Positions 2,882 through 63,890 are shown, numbered from the stretch's first letter. The stretch: 64,000 nt of DNA from Promethearchaeota archaeon (GCA_030603385.1 JAUVXW010000016.1:15228-79227); one strand, 5' to 3'. Notes: a model not told the origin generated them from the letters alone. A program made the numbers and translations.

Positions 2882-2883
2882 CT

Positions 2884-44582: not shown

Positions 44583-44746
44583 AAAACCAGCCTTTATTAA
44601 AAAAATCTAAAGTTAATATAATATTTATGAAAAGGTAAAATTAAATTTTATCTATAATGAGTAGACTTTTTTATAATAAGTTTTATCAGTGAATTAATAC
44701 AAATCTATATATTTCTTCTAACTTTAAAAGTTTAAATTCATATAAA

Positions 44747-48307: not shown

Positions 48308-48440
48308 CTCTTTATTAATTATAATATTGATTTAAAGTACAAAAATTTTTGTATTATGTTAATATTTGTTAGAACTTAAATTTTTTATAAAATCTTTTAT
48401 CTTTCCATTTTTTTAAAAATTCATTCACTTCCTTATTATA

Positions 48441-48593
48441 TTAATTTTCTTTTTCTAATAATAATTTATTTGCTATTAATTTAGTAACAGGATCTTCAAT
48501 TTGGTTAATAACTGATTTAAGATCTTCAGGAGTAAGATCTTTTTTCCACTCTTTTATTTTTTTTTCTAAAGTTGATTTTTCTTGTAAAGTCAT
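48441..48593 (-). CDS. Small hypothetical protein (50 aa)
   Basis: ATGA overlap with the stop of 48590..49537; MTLQEKSTLEKKIKEWKKDLTPEDLKSVINQIEDPVTKLIANKLLLEKEN. Confidence 0.55.
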   Translation of the reverse strand: MTLQEKSTLEKKIKEWKKDLTPEDLKSVINQIEDPVTKLIANKLLLEKEN

Positions 48594-49537
48594 CTATACA
48601 TACTTCCTCCTGGATCTGTTTTAACTTCGATTGTTTGTTCCTGTGGTTTTACTAAATTTGTTATTGATTTTGCCATTTCTTTAATTCCCTTGGCCATCTC
48701 AAACATAGCATCTTTAAGCTCGGAAATTTCTGTTTCAATATTTTCAAGTTTGTTTGGCATATCAAAATAAGATTTTACTTTTTCGATATTATCAGTTTCT
48801 TCCTCTCCATCTCCAGTTTTAGGAGAATCATCAACTTCTCTTACTTCTGTTGGTGTTTTAATAGTAAGAATTAGTTGTTTTCCTAAGCTCCCAAGAGCAT
48901 TAGGATCTCCATTTGATTTTATAGCAAAATGAGGTTTTTGACAAAACTCAGGATCTCTTTCATCAATAATAAACCCTTTCTTTTGTAAAAATAATCTAGC
49001 TTGTTTACAATCGGAAATTATATCTTCAAAATACTTTTCTAACTCGTTATTAGAAGAAACATATTGCTCATCTATATTCCGGTTAAAATTATAAATAATT
49101 ACGTTATTGCACACTTCAATTTTTTCTAAACCATTAAAATCCTGATAATTAAAAAAGATTAAAAATTTGGTCCAATTATTTAACTCAATTCTTTTTATAT
49201 GTAATCCATAAATAAACCCTTCATTCTGAATTCTATTTAACCATGAAGGTTTTTGAACTATTTTATTTTTAAACCTTAATTTATGAACCCTTACACTTTC
49301 TATCCCTTTTGGCAAAAGTTCCTTATCAGATGTGAATTCTTGTATTCTCTTCTGATTCAGATCACCTTGTTCTAAAAACATTGTTCCTAAATTGGTACAT
49401 TTATATTTCTTAGGATATGACTGGATCTGCTCTATTAGGTTTCGAGATTTAAAGTAAGTAATAATTTTGGATAAAAAACCTTTAGAAACTATACCCTTTT
49501 GGACAATCTCCTGAGCGTAAAAACCTTTATCTAACAT
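48590..49537 (-). CDS. wHTH-containing mobile-element protein, putative replication protein
   Basis: N-terminal wHTH-like segment (EIVQKG.VSK..LSK.I...KSRNLIE...YK.T.LG), HKLRF, PHFA, DDS...EEE and a C-terminal coiled coil. Confidence 0.5.
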   Translation of the reverse strand: MLDKGFYAQEIVQKGIVSKGFLSKIITYFKSRNLIEQIQSYPKKYKCTNLGTMFLEQGDLNQKRIQEFTSDKELLPKGIESVRVHKLRFKNKIVQKPSWLNRIQNEGFIYGLHIKRIELNNWTKFLIFFNYQDFNGLEKIEVCNNVIIYNFNRNIDEQYVSSNNELEKYFEDIISDCKQARLFLQKKGFIIDERDPEFCQKPHFAIKSNGDPNALGSLGKQLILTIKTPTEVREVDDSPKTGDGEEETDNIEKVKSYFDMPNKLENIETEISELKDAMFEMAKGIKEMAKSITNLVKPQEQTIEVKTDPGGSMYR

Positions 49538-49690: not shown

Positions 49691-49831
49691 CTAGAAATTT
49701 CCTACTTCAGAACTATCAATAGCATTTATGAGAATTTCTTTTACTTTCTCTTCTATTTTCTGGTTGGTTTTTTTACATAAAAATATTAATTCTTTATATT
49801 TATCATCAGGAAGTTCAATTTCGATTTTTAT
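49691..49831 (-). CDS. Small RHH-like protein (KIEIELPD family), probable ATA start
   Basis: IKIEIELPDDKYKELIFLCKKTNQKIEEKVKEILINAIDSSEVGNF; AGGTG 8 nt upstream; paralogous to 56763..56909 and to the C-terminus of 58188..58760. Confidence 0.6.
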   Translation of the reverse strand: MKIEIELPDDKYKELIFLCKKTNQKIEEKVKEILINAIDSSEVGNF

Positions 49832-49886
49832 TTTTATGACACCTAAATTTAATAATTCTTAAATCTTTTGTTCCAAATTGTATATA

Positions 49887-50050
49887 TTTTTGTCGAATAT
49901 TTAACATTTTAGTAATTCAGAAAATTCTTACCGTGTAATGATATTTCTGAGAGAGGGAAGGGGGTGATTGGAAGTAAAAGTAAGATTTAAATTTTGTCGG
50001 AATATTCTTCTTATTTGTAATAAATCCTATAGAATCTTCTATAAAAAAAG
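49887..50050 (+). repeat. Element X copy 1 (site - hairpin - purine tract - site - operator)
   Basis: Highly similar to 56968..57133; contains the TCAGAAA...TTTCTGA hairpin at 49917-49950. Confidence 0.9.
50028..50043. promoter_or_regulatory. Palindromic operator TATAGA-N4-TCTATA
   Basis: Perfect copies here and at 57111-57126; one-mismatch copies at 56932, 59133 and 59436. Confidence 0.6.
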
Positions 50051-50059
50051 AGGTTTTAA

Positions 50060-50674
50060 ATGTTGGAATTAAACAAGAAAAGATATATATTGATTAGAAA
50101 AATCATAAAAATTGTTATTATTTTGTTTTGGATTTTTACTTTTTTTACTCCCTTCCTTATACTTGTTTATACAAATTCATTACCTGTAGCAGATGATTAT
50201 ACATATATATGTTGGGGGCATGGATTTGTGGATTCTTCTCCCTATCCTTTATATTGGTTATTCTTTGCTCTATTTTTAGGGGGATTTTTCCTTAGTTTCG
50301 GAAATATAAAAACAAATTATAAAAATCAGATAATTAACAGAAACATTGGAAATATTAGTGGAACAATCATTTTAATGAGTGGAATAGGAATGAGTATATT
50401 AATCCAATTTATTAGAACAGATGTTTCATATGAAGTGAAAACAGGAATAGGAATGTACTTTCCAATAATAATAGCAATTCTTGTTTTTGGTGAAACATTC
50501 TTTTTAAACAGAGTCAAGATTATGGAGGCAGAGATTGTTAAAGAAGAACCGATTGAAGTACAAGAAAGAGAAGTAAAGGAAATCTCTGGAAAACTTTATT
50601 GCTCTTCATGTGGAGAAGAAATCTTGGATAAAACAGGTGATTTCTGTTCTAAATGTGGCGCTCCTTTAAAATAA
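50060..50674 (+). CDS. 4-TM membrane protein with C-terminal zinc ribbon, paralog 1
   Basis: Four hydrophobic helices; CSSC...CSKC tail nearly identical to paralogs 2 and 3. Confidence 0.85.
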   Translation: MLELNKKRYILIRKIIKIVIILFWIFTFFTPFLILVYTNSLPVADDYTYICWGHGFVDSSPYPLYWLFFALFLGGFFLSFGNIKTNYKNQIINRNIGNISGTIILMSGIGMSILIQFIRTDVSYEVKTGIGMYFPIIIAILVFGETFFLNRVKIMEAEIVKEEPIEVQEREVKEISGKLYCSSCGEEILDKTGDFCSKCGAPLK

Positions 50675-50811
50675 TGTTTTTATTTTTTTACTGCTAGATT
50701 GGAGGTAAAACCAAAGTTTAAATTTTGTCGGTCAAAATAAATTATTGATTAAAGACAAATAATGACTTAAAAGATTGAGTTATATTATAATTAAAAAAGT
50801 GGTGTTATTTC

Positions 50812-52458
50812 ATGAAAATTCTAAATATTCAAGCATCAAATTTTAAATCATTTAAAGAGTTCAATTTCGATTTTAAAAAAATCAATGTGATTTTAGGACC
50901 AAACAATAGTGGGAAAAGTAATATATTAAAACTTTTACTTTTGTTGAAGCAGACTTTCACATCTTCTCTGGAATCACCATTAATTTTAAATGGTAATATT
51001 ATTACCTTAGGATCCTATAAAGATATCACTTATAGACACAATAATAGGGACATAGGAATAAATTATCAAATTATAACCCCTTATGAAACAGATAGTAGAT
51101 TTTTTGATTTTATATCTGAGGAGAATCATTACGATTTACAGACTCAATATACTTTTGATGATAAATTAAATATCATTTATTTATCAAATGTAAAAATAAA
51201 TAATTTAAAACAAAATAATCAAATCTTAGATTTTCAAAAAGATAAGAAAATAGTTATAAATAACCGACCAATAGGATACTATTTAACTAAACTTAATACA
51301 GATCTCGATAATTTAATCAAAAAACTTGAAGTATTTCCAAAACTATCTATAAAAAAAAGTCATTTATTAAGACTACTTCGTGTACGATTAGAAATCGCAG
51401 AGATTGATTTAAAAAAAGTCTCTGATTTAAAGGATATATTTGACTATTTCAAAGAGATTTTTTTAAGAGCATTATCACGTAAATTGGATTTAAAAATTAA
51501 ATATAATAAAAAATTTATTGAATTTTTCCCGATTTACTCAAGCGATTTAGAACAAATTTATGATTTTAGTAATATACTTGAAAGACTAAATTCCCCTTTG
51601 TTTAGAAGGTTTATCTCAAATGAAATAAACGAAATAATTGGTAGTTGCAATGAATTAACCAATGAAATTATCAAGGTATATGATGAATTAAGAGCTGTCG
51701 CATATAAGTTAGATGTATTAAAAGATGGATTTTCTTCTTATTGTGAAAGAATGCGTTATATTGGACCATTAAGAGAATATCCTAAAAGATACTATCCAAT
51801 TATAGGAGAATCAGCAGAAGATGTCGGGGTTAAAGGGGAATTTGTACCATATTTATTAAAAAAATCTAAAGAAAAATTAGATCCTTGGGCTTATCGTTTA
51901 AGGGGTTTAAATAAAAGAATTCAAGATTGGCTTGTAAAGTTTGAAATGGCAAAAGAAACTGATATTAAGCGATATAAAGAAATTAATGAATTTATATCTA
52001 TTTTTTGTCAGGAATATTTTTCGGGAGTAAAAGTAAACATAAGTGATATGGGGTTTGGAACCTCTCAGGTATTACCAATAATAATTGAGGGCTTTTTTAT
52101 TGAAAGAAATTCTGTATTGATTATTGAACAACCTGAAATTCACCTTCATCCAAAAGCACAATCAACCTTAGGTGATTTATTTATCGAGATTGCAAATGAA
52201 AATAAAATTATAATAGTAGAAACTCATAGTGAACATTTAATCCGAAGAATTCAACGTCGTATAGCTGAAAATAAAATTTCTAATAAAGATGTAATATTCT
52301 ATTATGTTACTATAGGAAAGGAAGGATCTCAATTACAACGATTAGAAATTGATGAGGAAGGATACATAGAAAAGATCCCAGAAGGGTTCTTCGACGAAGA
52401 TTATAAAGAAGCATCTGAACATTTAAGGATTTTAGCAGAAAAAAAAGAAAATAGGTAA
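50812..52458 (+). CDS. ABC-type (AAA_15/AAA_21-like) ATPase with DUF3696-like C-terminus
   Basis: NFKSF, Walker A GPNNSGKS, YIGPLR, signature GFGTSQVLPI, Walker B IEQPEIHLHP, ETHSEH and PEGFFDE. Confidence 0.9.
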   Translation: MKILNIQASNFKSFKEFNFDFKKINVILGPNNSGKSNILKLLLLLKQTFTSSLESPLILNGNIITLGSYKDITYRHNNRDIGINYQIITPYETDSRFFDFISEENHYDLQTQYTFDDKLNIIYLSNVKINNLKQNNQILDFQKDKKIVINNRPIGYYLTKLNTDLDNLIKKLEVFPKLSIKKSHLLRLLRVRLEIAEIDLKKVSDLKDIFDYFKEIFLRALSRKLDLKIKYNKKFIEFFPIYSSDLEQIYDFSNILERLNSPLFRRFISNEINEIIGSCNELTNEIIKVYDELRAVAYKLDVLKDGFSSYCERMRYIGPLREYPKRYYPIIGESAEDVGVKGEFVPYLLKKSKEKLDPWAYRLRGLNKRIQDWLVKFEMAKETDIKRYKEINEFISIFCQEYFSGVKVNISDMGFGTSQVLPIIIEGFFIERNSVLIIEQPEIHLHPKAQSTLGDLFIEIANENKIIIVETHSEHLIRRIQRRIAENKISNKDVIFYYVTIGKEGSQLQRLEIDEEGYIEKIPEGFFDEDYKEASEHLRILAEKKENR

Positions 52459-52482
52459 TAATATCTTAAAAGAATGTAAACT

Positions 52483-52950
52483 ATGACTTGTCGGAAAATA
52501 GTAATAGATACAAATGTGTTCTATACTCTTATTAAAGAATCCCCTTATAAAGACAAATTTGGTATATGTCGTGAATTATTAGATAATATACTAAACCATT
52601 GCTATAATAGAGTTTGTCGCAATACAAAAATTAATGAAGAATACAAAAATTTTGAACGAAAGACGGAAAGATGTAAATATAGGACATATTATAATAAATG
52701 GTACGGACAAATGATGCAGCATCATAAATTTGAGTGGGTAGAATTGGCCAATATTAATGTAAATATTTCCCATGATGATGATCATAAATTTTTTCAAACA
52801 GCTTATAATACCAACGATAAAATAGTCATTACACAAGAAGAGAAATTATTAGAAAAAAGAGATGAAGTATTTGAGAATCATGGAATTAATATTTTAACAA
52901 TTGAAGATGCTAATGAAGTAGTTGCTATAGATGGTCCTGTTAATGCTTAA
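52483..52950 (+). CDS. PIN-domain protein (putative nuclease)
   Basis: IVIDTNVF, EEY, DDDHKF and IVITQE spacing typical of PIN acidic residues. Confidence 0.75.
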   Translation: MTCRKIVIDTNVFYTLIKESPYKDKFGICRELLDNILNHCYNRVCRNTKINEEYKNFERKTERCKYRTYYNKWYGQMMQHHKFEWVELANINVNISHDDDHKFFQTAYNTNDKIVITQEEKLLEKRDEVFENHGINILTIEDANEVVAIDGPVNA

Positions 52951-53000
52951 AAAAAAAGTAAATTGAAATAAAACTATAGGTTTAGATAATAAAAATTTAA

Positions 53001-53110
53001 ATTTTGTCGGTTTAATTAATTTTGATTCTCTTTTTTTCGCTTTTTCTACAAAAATTAGTTAAAATTGATCATTTTAGACATCAAAGTAAAGATTTAAATT
53101 TTTTGTCGTT
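53001..53110 (+). repeat. Element Y copy 1
   Basis: Similar to 57839..57946 and 63294..63402; bounded by TTTGTCG sites. Confidence 0.85.
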
Positions 53111-53202
53111 AAAATAAGGATATATGAGATAAGATCAAATTCAGAAATATACTATTTATTTTATTTCATATTTGAAAAGATTCAATAATAAGGTGTTAAA
53201 AA

Positions 53203-53367
53203 ATATCTCAAGAAAAAAATCGTTTAAAAGTTAAAGATTTTGAAATAGAAATTGAGGGAACTGAATCGTTCATTAATGATAATATTAAGGAAAGTAAAGC
53301 GATTGCTATTCTCTTAAAGACCTTTTCAAAAGACTTATCCCAAAAACAGCAAGAAGACAATAAATAA
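53203..53367 (+). CDS. Small hypothetical protein (54 aa), probable ATA start
   Basis: ISQEKNRLKVKDFEIEIEGTESFINDNIK...; AGGTG 7 nt upstream and an in-frame TAA two codons upstream. Confidence 0.5.
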   Translation: MSQEKNRLKVKDFEIEIEGTESFINDNIKESKAIAILLKTFSKDLSQKQQEDNK

Positions 53368-53414
53368 TCCTCTTTTTACTTTTTCTTTTTTACTTAACTA
53401 AGAAAAAGGAAGTA

Positions 53415-53573
53415 TTGGAAGTAAAAAGAAATATATTGATTGCAAAAGGATTAAAATATTTTGGGTTCGTTATGATTAATAATGGAGATTGGAAGTTTCA
53501 CTTCAACAGAAGAGAAGATATTACCTCAATAGAGAATTTTATCAAAGAGGTTTATTTTATTAAAGGTGAATAA
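53415..53573 (+). CDS. Small hypothetical protein (52 aa)
   Basis: C-terminus EDITSIENFIKEVYFIKGE is paralogous to 53923..54018. Confidence 0.5.
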   Translation: MEVKRNILIAKGLKYFGFVMINNGDWKFHFNRREDITSIENFIKEVYFIKGE

Positions 53574-53811
53574 AATGGTAGGTTGTGAAATCTTAACGCT
53601 TAGGTTGGAGGATGATATTAAATTAGAAATTAATAATTGGCTTTTATCAAACAAGGAAAAAAAAATTAAATTCATTCAACACACTTACATTCCACCAGTA
53701 ATTATTCCCATTTCTGAGAAGGATCCTATAAAAAACCAACCCAGGATGGAGAATGTCGCTTACGCAAAAAAACGAGGTTATCTCTTAGTTTTTTTTTATT
53801 TTGAAACTTAA
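53566..53811 (+). CDS. Small protein, Cse60/DUF2758-like (putative)
   Basis: EINNWL..N..KKIKFI.HTY...F.F pattern; paralog of 54011..54223. Likely start is ATG 53575. Confidence 0.6.
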   Translation: MNKMVGCEILTLRLEDDIKLEINNWLLSNKEKKIKFIQHTYIPPVIIPISEKDPIKNQPRMENVAYAKKRGYLLVFFYFET

Positions 53812-53922
53812 AACCTATAATCTTTTTCTTTTTTTTTATTTAACTATGCATTTTTATTTGCTTTAAATATGATATTCAAAAATATATAGTAACTAAATTT
53901 AATTAATAGAAGAGTGATAAAT

Positions 53923-54018
53923 TTGTTAAAATGCGAAATTCTAAAAATAGATCCAAAAGAAGATGTTAAAAAAATAGAGGATTTTATTCGAGAGATCTAT
54001 TTTATAGAAGGTGAGTAA
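53923..54018 (+). CDS. Mini-protein (31 aa)
   Basis: MLKCEILKIDPKEDVKKIEDFIREIYFIEGE; paralogous to the neighbouring ORFs. Confidence 0.5.
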   Translation: MLKCEILKIDPKEDVKKIEDFIREIYFIEGE

Positions 54019-54223
54019 AATGTTAGGATGTAAAACTTTAACTTTTAGGAATTACAATGAAATCGAGACTGGATTAAACAACTGGATTTTATTAAACCAA
54101 GAGAAAAAAGTTCGATTTATAACTCAATCATATATCCCACCAGATAGGACACCTGTAAATGAAGAAGGGGGGGATGAAGAAAAAGCAGGATTTCATCTAT
54201 ATACGATTTTCTTTGTAAGTTAA
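54011..54223 (+). CDS. Small protein, Cse60/DUF2758-like (putative)
   Basis: Paralog of 53566..53811. Likely start is ATG 54020. Confidence 0.6.
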   Translation: MSKMLGCKTLTFRNYNEIETGLNNWILLNQEKKVRFITQSYIPPDRTPVNEEGGDEEKAGFHLYTIFFVS

Positions 54224-54449
54224 ATTCAAAATTTAATCTTGATTTTTTATATTTAACATATAGAAGTTTTATTGATAAAGAGAGGGATTCTATACAATTG
54301 AAAATTGATAAGATTGAAGAAAAAGATTAAAAACAAATCATAATTTCAATAGAGTTTTCTTTTTTCTTAATATCCATCTAATTTAATATCAGATAGAATT
54401 AATTATAGTTTAATAGAAACTTTAATATTTTTATTCTAAATATAAATCA

Positions 54450-54972
54450 ATGAAAATGACATCATTGAAAAAAGATAATCTAAAAAATAATCACAACAGC
54501 AAAAAATTAAATAATTTAAACGGAAAGGAATGGTTAAGGTATTCTATTAGTGTTTGGGATATTTTTAAAACTCCTGAAGAGAGAAAATTAAATCATCCTG
54601 CAATGTTTCCTTTAGAACTTTGTGAAAGATTGATTAAAATTTTTACAAAAGAAGACGATATTGTATTTGATCCTTTTTTTGGATCAGGAAGCACTTTAAT
54701 TGCAGCAAAAAAGCATAAAAGAAAAGCAATTGGTTTCGAGATTAATAAAGATTATGTTGAACTATTCAAAGATAGAATTAAACAAACTAATCTATTAAAT
54801 TTTGATACTCAGAAACAAGAGAAACTAATCAAAATTCATCAAAAAAATGCTAATCTGATTTCGGAAAAATTGGATAAAAATTCAATTGATCTATGTTTAA
54901 CGTCCCCCCATATTGGGATATCTTAAGAATGAAGCGATCAGCAACTATTTCGAATACAGCCTTTTTAAATGA
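54450..54972 (+). pseudogene. Truncated, frameshifted N4/N6 DNA methyltransferase
   Basis: HPAMFP and DPFFGSGST are present. The SPPY motif is split by a C6 tract at 54904-54909 (C7 would give TSPPYWDIL), and the restored frame stops at 54972. Confidence 0.85.
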
Positions 54973-55083
54973 CGCCTAAAAAAGTAAAACCTAAAAAAGT
55001 TTAAATATCAATAACTCAAATATATTAGTGAAAAAAATCCACACTGAAAAAAAATTTTAAAATATTAAAAATAGGTTAATTTC

Positions 55084-56553
55084 TTGGAGACTCCAGAAAA
55101 AATTTTTTCATATTTGGAAGATAATAGTTATATGCATGAAATAGGGAATGCGGATATTAAACAAGAATGGAGTGATGAGACAGGAGAGTGGGTCAGATTT
55201 TATTTAATAATTAAAGATGATGGATTAATTCAAGATATCAGTTTCTTAAGCAGTGAACACAATGTAGTTAAAGCTACTGCAACTTATCTTTGTCAAAAAT
55301 GGAAAGGCCAACAGTTAAAAAAACTTAAGAGCTTAATTGTGACAAAATATATTGATCGTGAAAAAGTATTGGAGGATTTAGGTAATCCTTCAAAAGATTT
55401 TCATCCTTATATAGAGCTTGCCATTAAAACACTCGAACATTGCTTTGATATATGGCAGTGGAAAAAGGCTGCCACATCAAATTTGATGGTAAAGACAGGT
55501 CTTTTCTATAATTTTAAAAAAACTATCTTATTTTTTTGGATATTTTATATTCTTATGTGGGGTTGTTGGGTATTAAGTGATATTGAATTGTGGTTGGATG
55601 TTTTTAGTCTAACTTTTGTAATTCAAACTATTGGTGCATTTCTTTCTATTATTGCTACTATATTTTTAGTTAGAGGAACCCGTGATGGGGTCAGAAAAAT
55701 CACTTTCGAGAAACCAGATGATTTTCGTAACCTTTTCTGCCACGATTATTATTTCGACAAATATCGTTATGAACTAGACCGGAGAATTAATAGTACTCGT
55801 TGTAAATATCTTGGTCTTATCTTTATGGGAATTATTGAAATTTTTCATATATTAGATTTTATACCGCATATTTACACTAGTTTTATTAAACAAGATTGGC
55901 TTGCTGTTATTGGTTTTATAACAAACATAATCTGGTGGGTAGTATTTTATTTTTTTATTTTTATTGTGGCTTATCAAGTATTAATTGTAATAATTACTAT
56001 TGCTCAATTGGGAACTCATGTAAAACAGTTAAGTATTACACCATTTCTTAAACTTGACTTTGAGAAACTAACTAAGATTAATACTGATGATATGGTGACC
56101 TATTTACAGTTTCATAGATATACACGAATATTCGGTGAATTCCTGTTTAAATTTACACTAAAGGTAATAATCTTCATTGTTTGCATGGATTTAGCTTTTA
56201 TGCACATGGGGGGGATTATAGTATCTCTTTTGATGTTTGGGACTTTTTTTTGTGTCTCAATATTCATTCTTCCGCAATTTTCAATCCATAATATTCTTAA
56301 AAAAACAAAGAACAAGATAATAATATTTTACGAAGATTTATACGATAAAATTAAGCTAGAGATATTCAAAATATATGCTTCTGAAAAAAAGGAGGGGTTG
56401 CAAGATAAAATTTCTCAAGTTGAATTTATTAAAGCCGAGATAAAATTTACTGGTGATCTTGGTACTTGGGCCTATGATTTCCCTAAAGTTATGAGACTTG
56501 TTTATGCTGCTTGTTTATCGTTTATCCCATTAGTGATTGAGATATTCATTTAG
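55084..56553 (+). CDS. Multi-pass membrane protein with an N-terminal Cys-less IscU/NifU_N-like domain
   Basis: The first ~125 aa follow IscU/SufU spacing (TGE.V.FYL.I.DDG.IQDISF...ATA..L....KG...L...L); about 7 TM helices follow. Confidence 0.6.
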   Translation: METPEKIFSYLEDNSYMHEIGNADIKQEWSDETGEWVRFYLIIKDDGLIQDISFLSSEHNVVKATATYLCQKWKGQQLKKLKSLIVTKYIDREKVLEDLGNPSKDFHPYIELAIKTLEHCFDIWQWKKAATSNLMVKTGLFYNFKKTILFFWIFYILMWGCWVLSDIELWLDVFSLTFVIQTIGAFLSIIATIFLVRGTRDGVRKITFEKPDDFRNLFCHDYYFDKYRYELDRRINSTRCKYLGLIFMGIIEIFHILDFIPHIYTSFIKQDWLAVIGFITNIIWWVVFYFFIFIVAYQVLIVIITIAQLGTHVKQLSITPFLKLDFEKLTKINTDDMVTYLQFHRYTRIFGEFLFKFTLKVIIFIVCMDLAFMHMGGIIVSLLMFGTFFCVSIFILPQFSIHNILKKTKNKIIIFYEDLYDKIKLEIFKIYASEKKEGLQDKISQVEFIKAEIKFTGDLGTWAYDFPKVMRLVYAACLSFIPLVIEIFI

Positions 56554-56618
56554 CATTTGTTGTAATCTCTCTTGAATCTCTGTCAATATGGCATTATCAA
56601 CTGTTCCCATGAAATACT

Positions 56619-56771
56619 ATGAAAATCCCAAGAGATTTGAAAGATCTTTTTCAAAAATACATCGAAAAAAATCCAGGTCTAGGGTTTAATAAAGTTTCTC
56701 AACTTGTATTACATATTTTACAAGAAAAAGCATTTGAATTAAAAAAAGAACTGAAAGAAAAATCAAAATAA
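56619..56771 (+). CDS. Ribbon-helix-helix (CopG-like) protein
   Basis: MKIPRDLKDLFQKYIEKNPGLGFNKVSQLVLHILQEKA; strand-helix-G-helix pattern. Confidence 0.6.
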   Translation: MKIPRDLKDLFQKYIEKNPGLGFNKVSQLVLHILQEKAFELKKELKEKSK

Positions 56772-56909
56772 GTTTAAATCTTCATTCCTGCTTTTTATTT
56801 CTGTTTTTAAAGTATTTTCAATATATTTCTTTCTTTTTATTCCAAAATTTAGTTCTAAATATTCAAAAAAAGTTATATATTCATCAGGAAGTTCAATTTC
56901 GATTTTTAT
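56763..56909 (-). CDS. Small RHH-like protein (KIEIELPD family), probable ATA start
   Basis: IKIEIELPDEYITFFEYLELNFGIKRKKYIENTLKTEIKSRNEDLNLF; AGGTG 7 nt upstream. Confidence 0.6.
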   Translation of the reverse strand: MKIEIELPDEYITFFEYLELNFGIKRKKYIENTLKTEIKSRNEDLNLF

Positions 56910-56967
56910 TATCTTACACCTTTGAATCTTATATAGAATTCTTTATAGAATACCTCAAGTATTGATA

Positions 56968-57133
56968 ATTTTTGTCGGATATTTAACAGTTTACTAATTC
57001 AGAAAATTATTACCGTGTAATGATATTTCTGAGAGAGGGAGAGGGGTGATTGGAAGTAAAAGTAAAGATTTAAATTTTGTTGGAATATTCTTCTTATTTA
57101 TAATAAACTCTATAGAAAACTCTATAAAAAAAA
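56968..57133 (+). repeat. Element X copy 2
   Basis: Near-duplicate of 49887..50050; hairpin at 56999-57032; operator at 57111-57126. Confidence 0.9.
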
Positions 57134-57154
57134 ATATGATGAAATAGATGAATT

Positions 57155-57796
57155 ATGTTAATAACAAAAGATAGATATAACCTATTTAGAAAGCTTGTTA
57201 AAGGAATTATTATTATTCTATGGATTGCGTTATTTATTTGCCCGATAGTAACTTTTAATTGGAAAGATGTATGGGGTTCATATTCTTTTCCTTATTTCGT
57301 ATGTTATTGGCATGGTGGAGATGATTTTGCTCCTTACCCTCTTTATTGGTTCTTTGTGATTTTATACTTCATTGGATTTTTTCTCAATTTTGGAAATATA
57401 AAGAGAGATTACAAAAAACAAATCATTAATAAAAATCTTGGATATATTAGTGGATTACTTGTTTTATTAGGAATAGTAGGATTATCTTTTATGTCAATTA
57501 CATCAACGATTGGAATTAATGATAGATTAAGCCTACCTCCAGAGGTAATTATTCATACAAATATAGGGATAGGAATGATTTTTGCGATAATGATGATATT
57601 TATTATCTTTGCTGAGACAATATTCTTAAACAGAGTCAAGATTATGGAAGCAGAGATTGTTAAAGAAGAACCAATTGAAGTACAAGAAAGAGAAGTAAAA
57701 GAAATCTCTGGAAAAATTTTTTGCTCTTCATGTGGAGAAGAAATCTTGGATAAAACAGGTGATTTCTGTTCTAAATGTGGATCACCTTTAAAATAA
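57155..57796 (+). CDS. 4-TM membrane protein with C-terminal zinc ribbon, paralog 2
   Basis: Divergent N-terminal region but near-identical last ~55 codons versus paralogs 1 and 3. Confidence 0.85.
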   Translation: MLITKDRYNLFRKLVKGIIIILWIALFICPIVTFNWKDVWGSYSFPYFVCYWHGGDDFAPYPLYWFFVILYFIGFFLNFGNIKRDYKKQIINKNLGYISGLLVLLGIVGLSFMSITSTIGINDRLSLPPEVIIHTNIGIGMIFAIMMIFIIFAETIFLNRVKIMEAEIVKEEPIEVQEREVKEISGKIFCSSCGEEILDKTGDFCSKCGSPLK

Positions 57797-57838
57797 TTAT
57801 CTTCTTTTTTATTGTCAGACTGGAAATAAAAATAGGAT

Positions 57839-57946
57839 ATTTATCGGTTTAATGACTTTTGGTTCTCTTTTTTTCGCTTTTTCTACAAAAATTAATTAAA
57901 ATTGATTATTTTCGACATTGAAGTAAAGATTTAAATTTTATGTCGG
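57839..57946 (+). repeat. Element Y copy 2
   Basis: Near-identical to 63294..63402; ends in a CGACAT...ATGTCG imperfect inverted repeat. Confidence 0.85.
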
Positions 57947-58002
57947 GGAAATTACTTTTGATTCTCTTTTTTCTCTTTTCTTACAAAATTTAATTTATTA
58001 TT

Positions 58003-58179
58003 ATGACTAAAAAAGAAGAAATGATACGATTAATTCTTAATCCTGACAAAGATCAACCAATTTATGATTTTTTTATAGAAATCAAAAAGCAGTTAGGGTT
58101 AAAAGTAAATACAGAAGTAGCTAGATATTGCATTAAAAAAACATATCAACTTATATTTACAAATAGAAAAGAAGATTAA
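58003..58179 (+). CDS. Ribbon-helix-helix protein
   Basis: MTKKEEMIRLILNPDKDQPIYDFFIEIKKQLGLKVNTEVARYCIKKTY; clear paralog of 59156..59359. Confidence 0.75.
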   Translation: MTKKEEMIRLILNPDKDQPIYDFFIEIKKQLGLKVNTEVARYCIKKTYQLIFTNRKED

Positions 58180-58187
58180 CGCTTTAG

Positions 58188-58760
58188 TTAAAAAATTGCT
58201 TCTCTAAAAGTTGAATTTTTTAATACTTTGGTTTCTATTATTAAAAATTCGGAGATTTCTTCCTCGAGATTTTTATTTTTAATCATTGCTCGAATAGAAA
58301 AAAATTTATAAACTTCATCAGGTATTTCAATTTCGATTTTTACTTTTTCTTTACTTGAATTTTTATTATTTATTTGTCTGTCTAAATTGACATAGCTACT
58401 CAAATAAGCATTTTTATTGTTATAGGTAATTCTACATACATAATTCTCAATTGGAATGATTTTCCCTTTTTTTGTGATCCCTCTGAATTGAACAATAGCA
58501 GTTTTATCATTTTCGATTTGAAAATTTTGTAATATTTTTTTCAAATCTTCAGGATGCACTATTTTATAAAATTCTCTCTTTTTCCATTTAGAAATATCGT
58601 CTTGGGAATATCCAAAGATTTTACTGAATTCTTTATTGTAATAAAGTAGATGTCCTCTTTGGATCAAAAGAAACCCTAATTTTGATCGTTCTGCAAAATA
58701 TAGGAACTGTTTATCTTGGAATTTTGTAATAAATTCTCCTTTAATATCTATTTCTGACAA
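58188..58760 (-). CDS. PAS-domain protein with C-terminal RHH-like domain
   Basis: Y.N..F.KIFGYS..., VHPED and TKKG...IE PAS hallmarks; tail KVKIEIEIPDEVYKFF matches the mini RHH-like genes. Confidence 0.8.
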   Translation of the reverse strand: MSEIDIKGEFITKFQDKQFLYFAERSKLGFLLIQRGHLLYYNKEFSKIFGYSQDDISKWKKREFYKIVHPEDLKKILQNFQIENDKTAIVQFRGITKKGKIIPIENYVCRITYNNKNAYLSSYVNLDRQINNKNSSKEKVKIEIEIPDEVYKFFSIRAMIKNKNLEEEISEFLIIETKVLKNSTFREAIF

Positions 58761-58910
58761 TTTTTATAAATCACTTTCGTATGTTATTAGATAAAAAAAC
58801 TCTCGTTATGTATGTAGGGACTAACTTTTTAAACATTTTTGTTAAAATAATATATCTGTTGCGATAATACATATTAGTAATAGGAATTTCTTCCCATTAA
58901 TTTTTATATA

Positions 58911-59035
58911 TTTTTGTCGGTATGTCTCAATCTAGTAATTTCTATAATGATATTTAAGGATTTATTAAATTGGAAATTCTTTACTGTGTAATGGTACTTT
59001 TGAGAGAGGGAGAGAGGTAATTGGAAGTAAAAGTA
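58911..59035 (+). repeat. Element X copy 3 (diverged)
   Basis: TTTTTGTCGG...TTACTGTGTAATG...GAGAGAGGGAGAGAGGTAATTGGAAGTAAAAGTA. Confidence 0.75.
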
Positions 59036-59155
59036 GAAAAATTGCTTGTTTTAATATGGTTTCACTCTATAATAAATTTGACAGTTTATACTTCCCAATC
59101 GTATTTTTACTGCGGATAGACACATTATGCTATATAGAATTCTTTATAGAATAAT

Positions 59156-59359
59156 TTAAATGTGTTCTATCTTGTCTTTATTAAACCAATATTCATACGC
59201 TTTCTTTATACATATCCTTGCGACTTCTGTATTAGTTTTTAGTCCTAAATCTTCCTTTATTTGTTGAAAATAGTCATATAATGGCTGATCTAATTCTTTT
59301 GAAAGATTTAGTCTAATCCCTATTTCTTCTTCGGTTTCGTTGGTTCTATCCATAGACAT
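59156..59359 (-). CDS. Ribbon-helix-helix transcriptional regulator
   Basis: IRLNL...PLYDYFQQIKEDLGLKTNTEVARICIKKAY. Confidence 0.75.
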   Translation of the reverse strand: MSMDRTNETEEEIGIRLNLSKELDQPLYDYFQQIKEDLGLKTNTEVARICIKKAYEYWFNKDKIEHI

Positions 59360-59503
59360 ATATATTTTGAAGAAAATTTAACCTTTTGTAAATTACTCCA
59401 AGTTTATCCTAATTTATCACAAAAACTTATATATCTATAAAAATATCTATAGAGTAACAAAATTGGACAAAAAAAATTAATTAACACAAAAGAGGTAAAA
59501 AAT

Positions 59504-59743
59504 ATGACTATTAATGAAAATATTGAACTAAGACTTACCCTTACCCAAAAAGATCCGTTATATCAACCCTTTTCGAAAATCAAGAAATCCTCAGGAATAA
59601 AATCTAATTCGGAAGTACTTCGTTTTATCATAAAACAGATTTCAAAAATCCCTATTTCTGCTTTAATTCTTGATTTTATGGGTAAAGATGATGTTTCAAT
59701 AAAAAAAATAAAATCTACAAAAAAAGAGGTAATAGGAAAATGA
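59504..59743 (+). CDS. Ribbon-helix-helix transcriptional regulator
   Basis: LRLTL...PLY..F.KIK...GIKSNSEVLRFIIK; divergent from 59156..59359. Confidence 0.7.
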   Translation: MTINENIELRLTLTQKDPLYQPFSKIKKSSGIKSNSEVLRFIIKQISKIPISALILDFMGKDDVSIKKIKSTKKEVIGK

Positions 59744-60966
59744 GTAAAACAAAAACGTATTTATTCCATGAGTTATCTTCATATCTTCCATTATTAGAGG
59801 GGGATGAATTTGATGATTTAGTAGAGGATATTAAACAACATGGACAAATAGAACCTGTTACTATTTATGAAGGTAAGATACTTGATGGGAGAAATCGGTA
59901 TAGAGCTTGTAAGATATTGGAACAAGAGTTAATAATAAGAGAATGGAAACCAAGTACTGCAACTGGATCAACTCCATTACAGTATGTTATTAGTGAGAAT
60001 ATTATGAGAAGACATTTAAATGATAAACAAAAAGCTGAGATTGGGATGTTGTTATATCCTGAGATTGAAAAACAAGTAGAAGAAGAAAGAGTTAAAAAGA
60101 TGGTTGAAACAAAAAAAGAGCAGTTTGGAAAAGGTGAACTTAAATCTTTAGGTGGTCGAGAAGGTTTTGCTACACTAATTAAAAAAGAAAATAGTGTAGC
60201 AAAAAAATGGAAAAAAGAAGATACAACTGCTTATAAGGTTGCTCAAAAAGTTAGAGTTAAACCCGATACGATAATAAAGGTTAAAAAGATCAGAGAATCG
60301 GCATACGATAAAAGTACAGGTGAAATAAAAGATAAAGAGATTGCCGAAAAATGGGAAGAAGCTAAAAGAGAAGATACATCATTAGATGCTGTATATAAAG
60401 AGGCTGTAGAGAAAGAAATTATTGAGGACTTACCTGAAGATTTAAAAGAAGAAGTAAAGAGGGAAAAAGTTAAGGTTAAAGAAGCTAAAGAGAAAAAAAT
60501 TACTTATGAACCAAAGATTACAGTAAAAAAAGCCAAGGCAATTAAAGATTTGCCTAAAGATGTACGAGAAGCTGTTGTGCATTCAGAAGCAGAAATAACT
60601 GTTGAAGAAGCTAAAGAAATTGCTAAGATTCCAAGCGAAGTACTAAGAAAGCAAGAAGTACTTGAGAGAGAAAGAGTCAAAAAACGCCAAGAATCAGAAA
60701 TTAAAAAGAAGAAAGATTTGGCAGAAGGAAAAACTTTACCTAAAGTTAAATATTTTGACAAAGACGCAAATAAAGTTAATAATGTAGAAGTCATTTGTAA
60801 AAAAGCCATTACTGAGCTTACATTTGCTGGTTTAGAAGGATATGGTGAATCTGCCAGAAAAACTTGTATTGAAATGATGAAAGCTGTATTTGAGCATTTG
60901 AGAAAAGAATTGAAAAAAGCAGGAGAAGTAGCACCACGTGTGGTGATAGACGTCGATGCCGATTGA
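59740..60966 (+). CDS. ParB/Srx N-terminal domain protein
   Basis: L.EDIKQHGQ.EPV...ILDGRNRYRAC and SENIMRRHL; HTH-like and charged C-terminal region. Confidence 0.85.
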   Translation: MSKTKTYLFHELSSYLPLLEGDEFDDLVEDIKQHGQIEPVTIYEGKILDGRNRYRACKILEQELIIREWKPSTATGSTPLQYVISENIMRRHLNDKQKAEIGMLLYPEIEKQVEEERVKKMVETKKEQFGKGELKSLGGREGFATLIKKENSVAKKWKKEDTTAYKVAQKVRVKPDTIIKVKKIRESAYDKSTGEIKDKEIAEKWEEAKREDTSLDAVYKEAVEKEIIEDLPEDLKEEVKREKVKVKEAKEKKITYEPKITVKKAKAIKDLPKDVREAVVHSEAEITVEEAKEIAKIPSEVLRKQEVLERERVKKRQESEIKKKKDLAEGKTLPKVKYFDKDANKVNNVEVICKKAITELTFAGLEGYGESARKTCIEMMKAVFEHLRKELKKAGEVAPRVVIDVDAD

Positions 60967-61555
60967 AATAGATGCTGTAGAAAGTGCTATTAGAGAAATG
61001 ACTAAAGCAAGAAGACCAATAAATCCATTAGAAATTTGCTTATATATGGGAATAGAACCTTTTATGATATTACCACATAAAGAAGGAGAATGGGTAGGTA
61101 AAATAGATAATGTGGCAATAATTTATGGTCATATTCGTAAACTACATGAGATACATAATAAATGGCAAAGAAGGTATCGTGAAGCTTATGCGTCTTATAG
61201 AGAAGGATATCTAAATGCGTCTCATTGGGATGTAAAACTGATGAAAATGATTTATTATAAAGATGAAATGACTTACAAAGAATTTATTGATATGCGAGAG
61301 CCAGAAGAGGGTTTAGTTAGGATACCTGATCCTAATAACCCAGATGTATATATTGAGCCAAACCCACAAGAAATAAAAAATTGGCGTATGAAATATATTT
61401 CAGGAGGAAAAAAGACACTTATAACCAGAATCGAAGATGGGATAGATGATGGTACAATTGAAGATACCAGAAAGACCAGAAAAGCCCTTGATAAATTCGA
61501 TCCACAAAAATTCTTAAAATATAAAGAAGAGGAAGAATATGAAGAAGCTCAATAG
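60956..61555 (+). CDS. Hypothetical protein
   Basis: 199-aa ORF overlapping the ParB-like gene; GTGGTG upstream. Confidence 0.7.
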   Translation: MPIEIDAVESAIREMTKARRPINPLEICLYMGIEPFMILPHKEGEWVGKIDNVAIIYGHIRKLHEIHNKWQRRYREAYASYREGYLNASHWDVKLMKMIYYKDEMTYKEFIDMREPEEGLVRIPDPNNPDVYIEPNPQEIKNWRMKYISGGKKTLITRIEDGIDDGTIEDTRKTRKALDKFDPQKFLKYKEEEEYEEAQ

Positions 61556-61682
61556 AGATGGAATCAAATATTCTCTAAGATTAGAAGCTCTTGATAAATT
61601 TTGGGTTAATGATATTACATTTGAGCAATTTAAAGACGAGATAAAAGAGATAGATAAAAAATATCCAAAAGGAACTTATTAA
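61539..61682 (+). CDS. Small hypothetical protein (47 aa)
   Basis: MKKLNRDGIKYSLRLEALDKFWVNDITFEQFKDEIKEIDKKYPKGTY; GAGG upstream and T-rich tract downstream. Confidence 0.5.
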   Translation: MKKLNRDGIKYSLRLEALDKFWVNDITFEQFKDEIKEIDKKYPKGTY

Positions 61683-61736
61683 ATTTTTTAATAATTAATT
61701 TTTTTTATTTTTTGGTTTAATCTTGAACTAATTCGG

Positions 61737-62039
61737 TTGAGAAAACAGACAGGAAATAAATTTAAATTAAAAAAGAAGTTGAATGAATTGGAAATTAGAG
61801 CGATATGTCATAATGGAAAAATCGAGAAAAGAATACATTTTATAAATGGAAGAATTAAACAACTTCTTTATCATAGATGTAAAGAGCTTATAATTTGCAG
61901 AAACACTTTACTTGAACGTGATCCTGTGGTTTCTATATATCCATCACCAAAAACGTTAATTGGGAGATTTAAATCTATGATGTTCAAGAGATATAAAGAA
62001 AAAGAGTTAGATTGGGATGATATATTTAGATTTAGTTAA
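61737..62039 (+). CDS. Hypothetical protein
   Basis: ORF in a co-oriented run; start uncertain. Confidence 0.45.
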   Translation: MRKQTGNKFKLKKKLNELEIRAICHNGKIEKRIHFINGRIKQLLYHRCKELIICRNTLLERDPVVSIYPSPKTLIGRFKSMMFKRYKEKELDWDDIFRFS

Positions 62040-62056
62040 AAAAAGGGTTTAATAGA

Positions 62057-62167
62057 ATGAACTATATAGAACAGATTTTAGTAGTAATGTTTTTATTTGC
62101 TATAATTATCGAGAATTACCTTATATATCATTACCTAAAGAAGTTTTGGGAGTTTTTAAGAGAGTAA
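62057..62167 (+). CDS. Single-TM micropeptide (36 aa)
   Basis: MNYIEQILVVMFLFAIIIENYLIYHYLKKFWEFLRE; stop is 1 nt from the next ATG. Confidence 0.45.
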   Translation: MNYIEQILVVMFLFAIIIENYLIYHYLKKFWEFLRE

Positions 62168-62168
62168 A

Positions 62169-62288
62169 ATGGTTCTATGTGATAATTGTTTGAATAAAGA
62201 TTGTTGTGAATTTGCTTATGATGAAGAGCATCAAGAAAATTGCTCAGATTTCAAAACCGATGAGTATTTTGTAAGAATGATGTTTTAA
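62169..62288 (+). CDS. Cys-rich mini-protein (39 aa)
   Basis: MVLCDNCLNKDCCEFAYDEEHQENCSDFK...; CxxC-x4-C...C pattern. Confidence 0.5.
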   Translation: MVLCDNCLNKDCCEFAYDEEHQENCSDFKTDEYFVRMMF

Positions 62289-62364
62289 TTAGTTTTTATT
62301 GTAAGTGTGTTTAGGTTTCCTGAGCACCAATAAGAATAAATTTAAATAAAAAGAGGTTTAAAAA

Positions 62365-62616
62365 ATGAAATATAAAGATTTAAAATATGTAAGAAGAATA
62401 GTTCAAATTTTTGCGATAGTTAGTATCATTTTAGTATTGCCGTGGTTTTTGTTTTTCTTAGTTGATCCAAATATTCTTATTCCTGAATATAGCTACGATA
62501 AATATTCACTACTTTATATAAACTATTCGATATTATTTTGCTTCTTATTTATAATAATTATAGTGACTAATGCTGGAGTTAAAAGATACTATAATTTAAA
62601 GAAAAAAGAGGTTTAA
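62365..62616 (+). CDS. Small 2-TM membrane protein
   Basis: Two hydrophobic helices with basic termini; GAGG RBS. Confidence 0.7.
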   Translation: MKYKDLKYVRRIVQIFAIVSIILVLPWFLFFLVDPNILIPEYSYDKYSLLYINYSILFCFLFIIIIVTNAGVKRYYNLKKKEV

Positions 62617-62620
62617 AATA

Positions 62621-63250
62621 TTGGAATTAAGCAAGAAAAGATATATATTGATTAGAAAAATCATAAAAATTGTTATTATTTTGTTTTGGATTTTTACTTT
62701 TATTACACCATTCCTTATACATGTTTCTACATCACAATACGATGTGGTAGATGAACACACATTCATATGTTGGGGTCGTGGATTTATAGGTGGTATATCT
62801 CCATATCATTCATTACATTTGTTATTATTTGTTCTATTTTTAATAGGATTTTTCCTTAGTTTTGGAAATGTAAAAACAAATTATAAAAATCGGATAATCA
62901 ATAGAAACATTGGAAATATTAGTGGAATAATTGTTTTAATAAGTGGAATAGGAATGAGTATATCAATCCAATTTATATTTGTTGGAATAGATGTTTTAGA
63001 TGGTTATGAAACAAAAGATGGAGTGGGAATGTATTTTCCAATAATAATAGCAATTCTTGTTTTTGGTGAAACATTCTTTTTAAACAGAGTCAAGATTATG
63101 GAAGCAGAGATTGTTAAAGAAGAACCGATTGAAGTACAAGAAAGAGAAGTGAAGGAAATCTCTGGAAAACTTTATTGCTCTTCCTGTGGTGCTGAAATTT
63201 TAGATAAAACTGGAGATTTCTGTTCTAAATGTGGATCACCTTTAAAATAA
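62621..63250 (+). CDS. 4-TM membrane protein with C-terminal zinc ribbon, paralog 3
   Basis: Nearly identical to paralog 1 except in the two predicted outer loops. Confidence 0.85.
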   Translation: MELSKKRYILIRKIIKIVIILFWIFTFITPFLIHVSTSQYDVVDEHTFICWGRGFIGGISPYHSLHLLLFVLFLIGFFLSFGNVKTNYKNRIINRNIGNISGIIVLISGIGMSISIQFIFVGIDVLDGYETKDGVGMYFPIIIAILVFGETFFLNRVKIMEAEIVKEEPIEVQEREVKEISGKLYCSSCGAEILDKTGDFCSKCGSPLK

Positions 63251-63293
63251 TTTATCTTCTTTTTTATTGTCAGACTGGAAATAAAAATAGGAT

Positions 63294-63402
63294 ATTTATC
63301 GGTTTAATTACTTTTGATTCTTTTTTTTTCCCCTTTTTCTACAAAAATTAATTAAAATTGATTATTTTCGACATTGAAGTAAAGACTTAAATATTTGATT
63401 GG
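63294..63402 (+). repeat. Element Y copy 3
   Basis: Near-identical to 57839..57946; the shared sequence extends back through the 3' end of the TM gene. Confidence 0.85.
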
Positions 63403-63890
63403 GGTTATAAAAATAGGGAAATTTATTCAAAGATAATTTGAGTTAAACATTGGATTTCGCCCTCTATTAAATTCTATTGAGTTTAATCTCTCCCTGATTT
63501 TTTTTATAATTGCTCATATTTCTTTTCCCTTCTCTTTAGGTAAGAATTTAGGATCGATCCAATTAGAAAAATCATAATCATTATATTTTAAAAATTGTAA
63601 TTTTTCAAGGAGTAAACATTCTTTTGAATAGAGTTCGAACAATATTTTTTATTTTCATATTAATTTTGAGTGTAATTTATCATAATTTTCAATTTGTAAT
63701 ATTGAACCTTTTTATCGTTATAATTAATCTTTTCTCTATTTTTGGATGTTTCAATTTTACCACAAAAATCCTATTAAAGTATCAAAAAGAGCCATTATTT
63801 CTTAAAAAAAGAGAAGATTTAAATTTTTTGTCGGTATGATAAGAATGAATAATATTAAAATATTAAAAAAGACATAAATGAGGAATAAAA

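Follow-up and report, generated by a model that had tools for sequence, protein, structure and literature searches.

As a Lokiarchaeal island in which the same short motif stands again and again between the genes, the locus analysed here raises the question of whether its modules are captured and shuffled by a site-specific recombination system comparable to the integrons, as the original prediction had proposed, or are brought together in some other way. The window, by which we mean the whole stretch of 64,000 nt that was analysed (Promethearchaeota archaeon, GCA_030603385.1, JAUVXW010000016.1:15228-79227), ends where its contig ends and belongs to a Lokiarchaeial (Asgard) genome with an assembly of 3.89 Mb and an estimated contamination of 7%. 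Our results revealed a gene island made of swappable modules, several of them antiviral, which are joined by conserved short non-coding linkers, and the shuffling at these linkers is real, while none of our tests gave any sign of a recombination machinery like that of the integrons. The acquisition and rearrangement of accessory and antiviral genes in Asgard archaea are still poorly known, and the linkers provide one concrete architecture for them.

The island and its insertion

The region was predicted to be an integrase-bearing element, and this is what it turned out to be. At its left edge lies a 14-nt att core (attL, 44677-44690), followed by a Xer-like tyrosine recombinase with a C-terminal zinc ribbon (44747-45862, + strand; PF00589, 2.1e-15; 90.5 bits on the NCBIfam XerA model, below the cut-off of 220 bits), which is the integrase of the island. 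The same 14 nt recur as a direct repeat on contig C50 (C50:38666-38679), inside the 3' end of a 420-aa core gene. In the relatives G028 and G023 this gene and the FTCD gene are neighbours, and in the window's genome the island splits the pair, so that the whole island was put into the 3' end of a core gene by a tyrosine integrase, at an att differing from the motif. The contiguity of the island is only inferred, because its right end sits on the other contig. Between the integrase and the array are four genes on the - strand for which no family was found (46288-49537; 251, 166, 255 and 315 aa).

Distribution of the site motif

The core of the motif has 15-17 nt, consisting of a TATA-like box, a T-run and GTCGG, with a conserved A-rich prefix ahead, and it occurs from 49.9 to 63.8 kb on the + strand only, just as had been claimed. 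Most of the predicted end positions were also confirmed: full copies end at 50000, 50731, 53010, 53108, 57946 and 63834, a GTTGG variant ends at 57083, and shorter cores with TATA, T-run and GTCG(A/G) end at 49895, 56978 and 58920; those near 57847, 63302 and 63402 proved degenerate, with the TATA part gone or with ATCGG or GATTGG instead of GTCGG. The exact 15-mer is found three times in the 14-kb array and never in the other 3.88 Mb of the assembly, and when 0-2 extra bases are allowed in the T-run the whole assembly has five forward and no reverse matches, all within the array. With at most one mismatch there are four matches inside the array vs six outside, an enrichment of about 180-fold. 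Each of 60 relatives has 0-2 copies, equal to a reversed control pattern and thus at chance level. A generic host promoter was rejected, since host genes show no enrichment of GTCGG in their upstream regions and the rest of the genome lacks the motif. One further copy is found at the end of a second contig of the window's genome, upstream of a small-GTPase gene (C48:62656-62708).

Anatomy of the linkers and their cargo

Two conserved non-coding linkers, X (about 115 nt) and Y (about 110 nt), have the core as their 3' end. At this end both show an A-rich BRE-like stretch and then a TATA box, after which the T-run and GTCGG often come, while the start of Y is made of oligo-T tracts of the type that terminates archaeal transcription. 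The array begins behind a small RHH-like ORF of the KIEIELPD type without a canonical start codon (49700-49843, - strand) with linker X1 (49882-50000, +), which is composed of a short core ending at 49895, a hairpin region d (49896-49965) and a 35-nt site with prefix (49966-50000). TM gene 1 follows, encoding four TM helices and a zinc ribbon (50060-50674, +), and then a second copy of the 35-nt site (50697-50731, +; 86% identical to 49966-50000). Next come a defence-type ATPase (AAA_15/AAA_21 and DUF3696; PADLOC NsnB/HEC-03B/PDC-M55A) and a weak PIN-like protein (50812-52950, +). This pair was said to sit exactly between two sites, and in fact identical 15-mers flank it (50717-50731 and 52996-53010), with homology to the sequence downstream of TM genes 2 and 3 restarting at 53011. 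The second of these 15-mers is already the first core of linker Y1 (52996-53108, +), whose T-rich part c (53011-53082) is followed by prefix b and another core (53059-53108).

Behind Y1 stands mixed cargo (53110-56771, +): a 489-aa membrane protein and part of a DNA methylase (54450-54926) are encoded there, along with two small ORFs that are paralogous and one ORF of 50 aa. After a second small RHH-like ORF (56780-56935, -), linker X2 (56965-57083, +), whose site is the variant ending in GTTGG, leads to TM gene 2 (57155-57796, +) and to a stretch (57818-58002, +) in which linker Y2 (57848-57946) stands between a degenerate site (57818-57847) and an incomplete second c (57947-58002). The segment 58003-58760 holds a 58-aa ORF (+) and a PAS and RHH-like regulator (58188-58760, -), which is found again in the arrays of relatives. 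Linker X3 (58907-59036, +) stops after the site prefix, with TATA and GTCGG missing. The cargo behind it (59156-62616), partly common to G063:C11, contains ORFs of 199, 100 and 83 aa besides a 408-aa protein and small RHH-like genes. TM gene 3 (62621-63250, +) has no site upstream, and behind it (63273-63402, +) lie a degenerate site, linker Y3 and a TATA variant that lacks GTCGG. A conserved unit of about 95 nt ending in CTGA and T8 (63409-63505, +) comes next, which is also located 3' of Y in eight other loci, reaches a metagenome depth of 2000-3000 and is a candidate small RNA. A core with a T6 run (63818-63834, +) finally precedes the last cargo gene, which is open at the contig end. The three-fold backbone described in the original prediction is real, X1 and X2 being 84% identical, the Y copies 85-95%, TM1 and TM3 85% and TM1 and TM2 about 70%, but it is uneven, X3 being truncated at 59036 in the site prefix and TM3 lying 3.5 kb away.

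Arrays of X and Y are also present in 36 metagenome contigs and in a few other genomes, which belong to the same Lokiarchaeial genus. Among 37 distinct copies of Y, each column is 90-100% conserved over a length of about 110 nt that starts with the T-run/GTCGG and extends as far as the next TATA, and the conservation falls off on either side. GTCGG itself follows the Y prefix and TATA in only about 12 of 23 copies, which does not support it as a universal core. In relatives X can directly abut Y with no TM gene between them, an "empty" form. Since the cargo across the arrays includes Gabija, a Pycsar effector, a reverse transcriptase and ATPase-nuclease pairs, the arrays are modular variable or defence islands.

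Exchange of modules at the linkers

That the sites are module boundaries is borne out by other genomes and metagenomes, where the cargo beside identical sites differs. In the 36 metagenome contigs the identical core combines freely with at least six upstream and at least eight downstream contexts: upstream of it are Y, X, the 3' end of a TM gene or other DNA, and downstream at least eight unrelated sequences. The fixed crossover point that a cassette system implies is not found, for homology breaks at no fewer than five different positions in and around the site, namely 3' of GTCG, at the joint of prefix and TATA, behind the prefix (59036), behind a 45-nt leader, and within the prefix itself. 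The last case is seen where X2 of the window is 96.8% identical to metagenome contig L154 upstream of the break and other cargo follows downstream there. Moreover, the T-run length and a GTCA variant co-vary with the downstream gene, and the TM3 and X3 junctions fall outside any site.

Linkers as putative portable promoters and terminators

To understand this pattern, we propose that the linkers would act as portable terminator/promoter modules, that is, as mobile promoters, and that the cassette-like mosaic would arise by homologous recombination or gene conversion between linker copies, a proposition which we prefer to the others and hold to be about as likely as not. The recombining copies may belong to the array itself, to a further copy of the island or to incoming DNA, and the linkers probably bear operators for the island's own RHH and PAS-RHH regulators. 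The scattered break points are as expected of homology-driven exchange, and near-identical upstream sequence does stand before non-homologous genes. The geometry of the sites fits a promoter as well: in 25 of 34 distinct non-linker downstream contexts a same-strand ORF starts 27-138 nt after the core, and the TTTAAA boxes of the host peak 30-40 nt ahead of start codons. Furthermore, the TATA part behaves as if selected only where needed, being intact in 16-21 of the 23 prefix-found copies where cargo follows and in 6 of the 18 where only the gene-less part c follows, counts that are not independent because the compared copies are related; the variants ahead of genes are still good TATA boxes.

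Several observations speak against such promoter activity as the full account. GTCGG is G+C-rich where host promoters are almost pure A+T, and it is retained ahead of part c even with a decayed TATA, so that it has a function beyond plain promoter activity. The order of site, c and site, in which a site comes before a terminator-like tract, makes little sense for a promoter, and many cargo genes do not use the motif at all (PAS-RHH, reverse transcriptase, GajA and PycTM). The distance from site to start has a median of about 74 nt, greater than the host norm, and in G063:C79 the gene of a Xer-like recombinase ends 57 nt ahead of the start of X-Y. The near-uniform conservation of Y across species also exceeds what a promoter needs, suggesting a recent spread.

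Alternative explanations

One alternative is a site-specific system dedicated to cassettes and functionally analogous to integrons or pdif modules, in which a recombinase acting on a core of about 25 nt would excise and insert units each ending in a site, and so build the arrays. The units are bounded by co-oriented cores and carry varied cargo, the ATPase/PIN pair and TM1 each standing between direct repeats of the site; the X-Y form without a TM gene, the free combination of flanks around an identical core and the persistence of GTCGG after TATA decay would all be natural for it, and the gene-less Y resembles an empty cassette. The arrays start beside tyrosine recombinases at the island edge in the window, in G063:C79 and, as a remnant, in metagenome contig L147. 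We nevertheless consider such a system unlikely. Architectures of the attC and dif kinds were rejected: X and Y have no better folds on either strand than their shuffled versions (z from -0.44 to +1.25, with 0.0 to +1.25 for an attC-like single-strand fold), and the best match to dif-like inverted arms, 7-8 of 11, equals that of shuffles, whence the integron-analogous mechanism of the original prediction is not upheld. The breaks lack a single position, the T-run differs in length by 0-2 nt within the supposed core, about half of the Y copies end without GTCGG, and the TM3 and X3 junctions escape the sites altogether. Nor does the integrase at 44747 appear to serve the sites, as had been thought possible, since its own att core is unrelated to the motif and it has no homologue at E ≤ 1e-10 in the array-rich genomes G061, G012 and G019, the best match in the genus being 33% identical and on another contig. 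The arrays share no recombinase family, the two adjacent integrases being just 23% identical; that of the window has no match to the integron-integrase model, and that of G063:C79 gets 31 bits on TIGR02249 (cut-off 265). A recombinase hidden among the unknown proteins of the array was rejected too, Pfam (E ≤ 1), NCBIfam and PADLOC finding none and the 408-aa protein giving only a faint ParB_N hint. A variant in which the island's Xer-like recombinase or the host XerA would act on a core of about 25 nt doubling as a promoter, at sites unrelated to those of integrons, is in our opinion just as doubtful; every captured unit would therefore be expressed, and Lokiarchaeia would assemble and reshuffle their defence islands unit by unit.

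Rather improbable in our view is that X and Y are non-autonomous, MITE-like elements which carry promoters and insert at TATA-like targets, with the core repeats as target duplications. Y is multi-copy and uniformly conserved across species, it breaks assemblies and has many copies at contig ends, it is covered 10-100 times as deeply as the cargo in metagenomes from sediment, and the same TATA and T-run on its two sides could be read as a duplication. However, terminal inverted repeats amount to nothing beyond a 6-nt pair, no transposase is associated, and the copies are always co-oriented with their neighbours and confined to islands, the window's genome having only this array and the copy at the C48 end; neither a solitary insertion in an otherwise conserved core intergenic region nor an empty/filled orthologous pair was found. 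As to an assembly artefact, by which the array would be a chimeric path through repeats common to several strains or elements, the contig does end within the array, the genome has the contamination given above, and exact repeats of 60-80 nt join TM1 and TM3; in four metagenomes the depth of cargo segments is very unequal and no contig spans the linkers, the contigs over the region being short and ending at linkers, with Y and 63.4-63.6 kb in high copy and some joints at sites. Yet the same grammar of linkers and cargo is found in independent assemblies that come from other studies (Loki_b32, G063, G018, G019, G012 and the 36 metagenome contigs), and most joins are unambiguous because the linker copies of the window differ by 5-30%. 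We thus regard an artefact as highly improbable, although the module order of a metagenome-assembled contig is not guaranteed when exact repeats of at least 60 nt link TM1 and TM3.

Relation to known systems

One close likeness is to mobile promoters (Nijveen, Matus-Garcia and van Passel, Mob Genet Elements 2012, PMC3575422), non-coding sequences of high similarity that are reused upstream of genes with no relation to each other, both in a single genome and across genomes. Here, in contrast, the two linkers are clustered and co-oriented in integrase-borne islands, are composite with a terminator-like part, and mark the breaks of module exchange. Classical integrons have been reported in Archaea (Ghaly et al., Sci Adv 2022, PMC9668308), and they share with our arrays the small co-oriented units, a varied and partly defence-related cargo, a short boundary sequence and a tyrosine recombinase at the island edge; the arrays differ by having no IntI-type integrase, attC hairpin, GTTRRRY core (G|TTRRRY) or fixed crossover, and their sites carry TATA boxes of their own whereas integron cassettes are promoterless. 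Dif-type sites are 28 bp long and consist of a pair of inverted arms of 11 bp each and a spacer of 6 bp (Cortez et al., PLoS Genet 2010, PMC2958812). As in our arrays, the swappable units of pdif or Xer modules and of archaeal XerA/dif stand between short sites and are accompanied by Xer-like recombinases, but pdif sites alternate in orientation while ours have no such arms and are all direct repeats.

Defence islands and integration hot spots resemble the present islands in the clustering of Gabija, Pycsar effector, reverse transcriptase and ATPase-nuclease pairs in an insertion beside an integrase; here conserved non-coding linkers of one common family stand between the systems, an arrangement of which we found no report. 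T7-like phages have repeated 23-nt promoters, and conserved boundary or promoter sequences stand at the mosaic joints of phage genomes. Such joints are alike in that intergenic repeats of 20-25 nt, all in one orientation, also serve the homology-driven exchange of modules, and differ in that our arrays have no element-specific RNA polymerase and reside in an archaeal host with TBP/TFB promoters. Rudivirus promoters may carry GTC after the TATA box, which we did not use as evidence; a virus origin was rejected, neither the core nor the 63.4-kb unit having an exact match in IMG/VR.

This linker family of about 100 nt, at which modules are exchanged, crosses species and is common in metagenomes of marine sediment. 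Should the linkers prove to be portable regulated promoters, they would offer natural expression signals for Lokiarchaeia, useful for future genetics, and the stretches between them would lead to new cargo, including unknown defence systems. If a recombinase acts on them, they would be an archaeal counterpart of integrons that has arisen independently.

Some minor features of the sites may be added. Rfam at E ≤ 1 gave no known RNA family save one chance match to a CRISPR repeat, and the window's genome has no CRISPR array, its sole candidate being a coding repeat. In its prefix the site is similar to some CRISPR repeats at their ends. A possible 71-aa ORF has its end within the copy at 63818-63834, and sequences similar to the hairpin and prefix are located in two conserved core intergenic regions of other species.

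Gene content and insertion site

The window (G000:C54:15228-79227, with the contig end as its right edge) has a G+C content of 25-30%. Starting at 44.6 kb, it encodes a Xer-like tyrosine recombinase (44747-45862) and then four unknown minus-strand genes; from 49.8 kb on the plus strand predominates, with three mutually paralogous 4-TM/zinc-ribbon genes (TM1-TM3), a defence-type ATPase with a PIN-like partner (PADLOC NsnB/HEC-03B/PDC-M55A), a methylase fragment, a PAS + RHH-like regulator, small RHH-like genes and several unknowns.

The insertion locus takes in window 44583-44746, G000:C50:38600-38800 and L191 (G077:C1). FTCD has a 420-aa core gene as its direct neighbour in G028 and G023; here the island lies between the two, the 420-aa gene being on contig C50. 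A 14-nt direct repeat (44677-44690 = C50:38666-38679, the latter in the 3' end of the 420-aa gene) is likely the att core of the island, of which C50:38705-61376 may be the remainder. This 3' end is an integration hot spot, occupied by the full island in this genome, by a 3.3-kb remnant including the integrase 3' end in G077, and by an integrase remnant in metagenome contig L147, which carries FTCD, the remnant, a PAS-like gene, the core and a GTPase. Moreover, on G063:C79 a different Xer-like tyrosine recombinase (41255-42308; L095 9256-10309; 23% identical to that at 44747), directly after the core genes RNase P component 4 and Nep1, ends 57 nt 5' of an X-Y start, and the contig terminates within Y. 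From the insertion locus, the att repeat, the remnants and this neighbouring recombinase, it follows that the arrays are carried on integrative islands.

Linkers X and Y

Self-comparison and element mapping revealed that the motif is the terminal part of two linkers, X and Y. X opens with a short core, continues with a stretch of ~70 nt that holds a hairpin and a purine tract, and closes with the prefix and the core; Y runs from a core through the T-rich part c to a second prefix and the core. The motif copies listed in the original prediction were recovered by repeat finding and direct reading, and their confinement to the array (49.9-63.8 kb) was upheld: three copies of the exact 15-mer (TATA-like box, T4, GTCGG) lie there and none in the rest of the 3.89 Mb, and with 0-2 additional T-run bases there are five forward and no reverse copies, every one inside the array. 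In 60 relatives the motif count equals that of a reversed control pattern, so a generic promoter of the lineage is ruled out. An extended pattern, searched against 185,579 species genomes, matched only Promethearchaeota (Lokiarchaeia) MAGs, apart from scattered chance bacterial matches.

X and Y are multi-copy in a few same-genus genomes (G061, which is Loki_b32, G063, G018, G019, G012 and G065), many copies lying at contig ends. Across ~110 nt, Y is conserved at 90-100% per column (37 distinct copies), declining 5' of the first T-run/GTCGG and 3' of the second TATA.

Some related elements were also observed. Within this genome a site variant (G000:C56:13089-13125, L167) of prefix, TTTATAA-type TATA box and GTCGG is present on a third contig. 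In genus g9 of the same order (G054, G048), a different promoter-like repeat, TATA box + T5 + GTCGG, has three copies (L010, L015, L016), each ahead of the same gene start. Eight further species of the genus to which this genome belongs (L060, L061, L063, L064, L070, L071, L075, L077) carry, single-copy and within two conserved core intergenic regions, a G-rich hairpin that precedes the site's prefix (ATTGGAAGTAAAA...); this has the look of a solitary element, either CRISPR-repeat-like or regulatory.

Shuffling of modules

The arrays are modular islands, antiviral in part. For example on G063:C11, the linkers separate a Pycsar effector, an ATPase-Schlafen protein, HD proteins, a 906-aa reverse transcriptase, GajA + GajB and DUF3800; among further cargo, the PAS-RHH regulator recurs, as does a small Ras-like GTPase, multi-copy in array-bearing genomes. 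Across 36 metagenome contigs a core of 23-25 nt, taken as the fixed point, is freely combined with six or more kinds of context upstream and eight or more downstream. Window X2 and metagenome contig L154 share 96.8% identity across 187 nt, and the X2-like linker of L154 is followed by the cargo found 3' of 63834 in the window instead of by TM2. X and Y are directly contiguous in relatives, and the window has a TM gene between two 35-nt site copies. Shuffling at the linkers is thus real. A chimeric assembly of this particular contig is a very improbable alternative.

Nature of the linkers

Swappable modules at conserved sites in an integrase-borne island, as originally predicted, are therefore retained, but the integron-like mechanism is not. 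In a search for attC-like folds, single-stranded X and Y were no more strongly folded than shuffles, and the 11-6-11 inverted arms that define dif-type sites (PMC2958812) are not found above shuffles. Nor is GTC supported as the crossover point: homology breaks lie past GTCG, at the prefix-TATA junction, within the prefix, directly after it (59036; L081 5320) and after a 45-nt leader, and of 23 copies of Y prefix + TATA only about 12 are followed by GTCGG. The break at TM3 lies outside any site, and T-run length and the GTCA variant go with the downstream gene. Service by the 44747 integrase is likewise unsupported: the 14-nt repeat has no relation to the motif, no homologue reaches E<=1e-10 in G061, G012 or G019, and none in the genus exceeds 33% identity. 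The mechanism is probably not integron-like, and a site-specific cassette system of any kind is unlikely.

The core combines an A-rich stretch with a TATA box, and the TTTAAA boxes of the host itself are most frequent 30-40 nt 5' of start codons. A same-strand ORF starts 27-138 nt past the core in 25 of 34 cargo-type contexts. When copies are ascertained through the prefix alone, 16-21 of 23 before cargo have an intact TATA vs 6 of 18 before part c alone, a comparison that is indicative at most, as the copies are related. Part c has T7 and T5 tracts, and such oligo-T tracts terminate archaeal transcription. Some features do not fit a plain promoter: GTCGG is atypical of host promoters and is retained where TATA decays, the upstream regions of many cargo genes are unrelated to the motif, and Y is conserved far beyond promoter needs. 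Y and the 63.4-63.6-kb unit reach depths of hundreds to thousands in four sediment metagenomes, where cargo has 1-60; MITE-like linkers are nevertheless slightly less likely still than a site-specific system. The best explanation, at about even chances, is that the linkers would act as portable terminator/promoter units, at which modules would be exchanged via homology. Literature searches for linkers of this kind in Asgard archaea found no published account and gave only general mobile-element surveys and reports of classical integrons in Archaea; the closest concept is promoter reuse (PMC3575422).

Other observations in the array

The cargo includes two pairs of small paralogous ORFs, one direct (53510-53698 / 53955-54143, 69% identical) and one inverted (58010-58172 / 59331-59170, 64%). 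Two minus-strand RHH-like ORFs (49700-49843 and 56780-56935; 48-52 aa) are intact without an ATG/GTG/TTG start, with an ATA codon a few nt 3' of an AGGTG Shine-Dalgarno motif, an arrangement suggestive of non-canonical initiation. Finally, a conserved ~95-nt unit 3' of Y (63409-63505; nine loci including L082, L083, L085-L088, L090 and L091), without a match in Rfam, combines a TATA of its own with a hairpin that shows one compensatory change and with a CTGA + T7-8 terminus; at a sediment metagenome depth of 2000-3000, it is a candidate small RNA.
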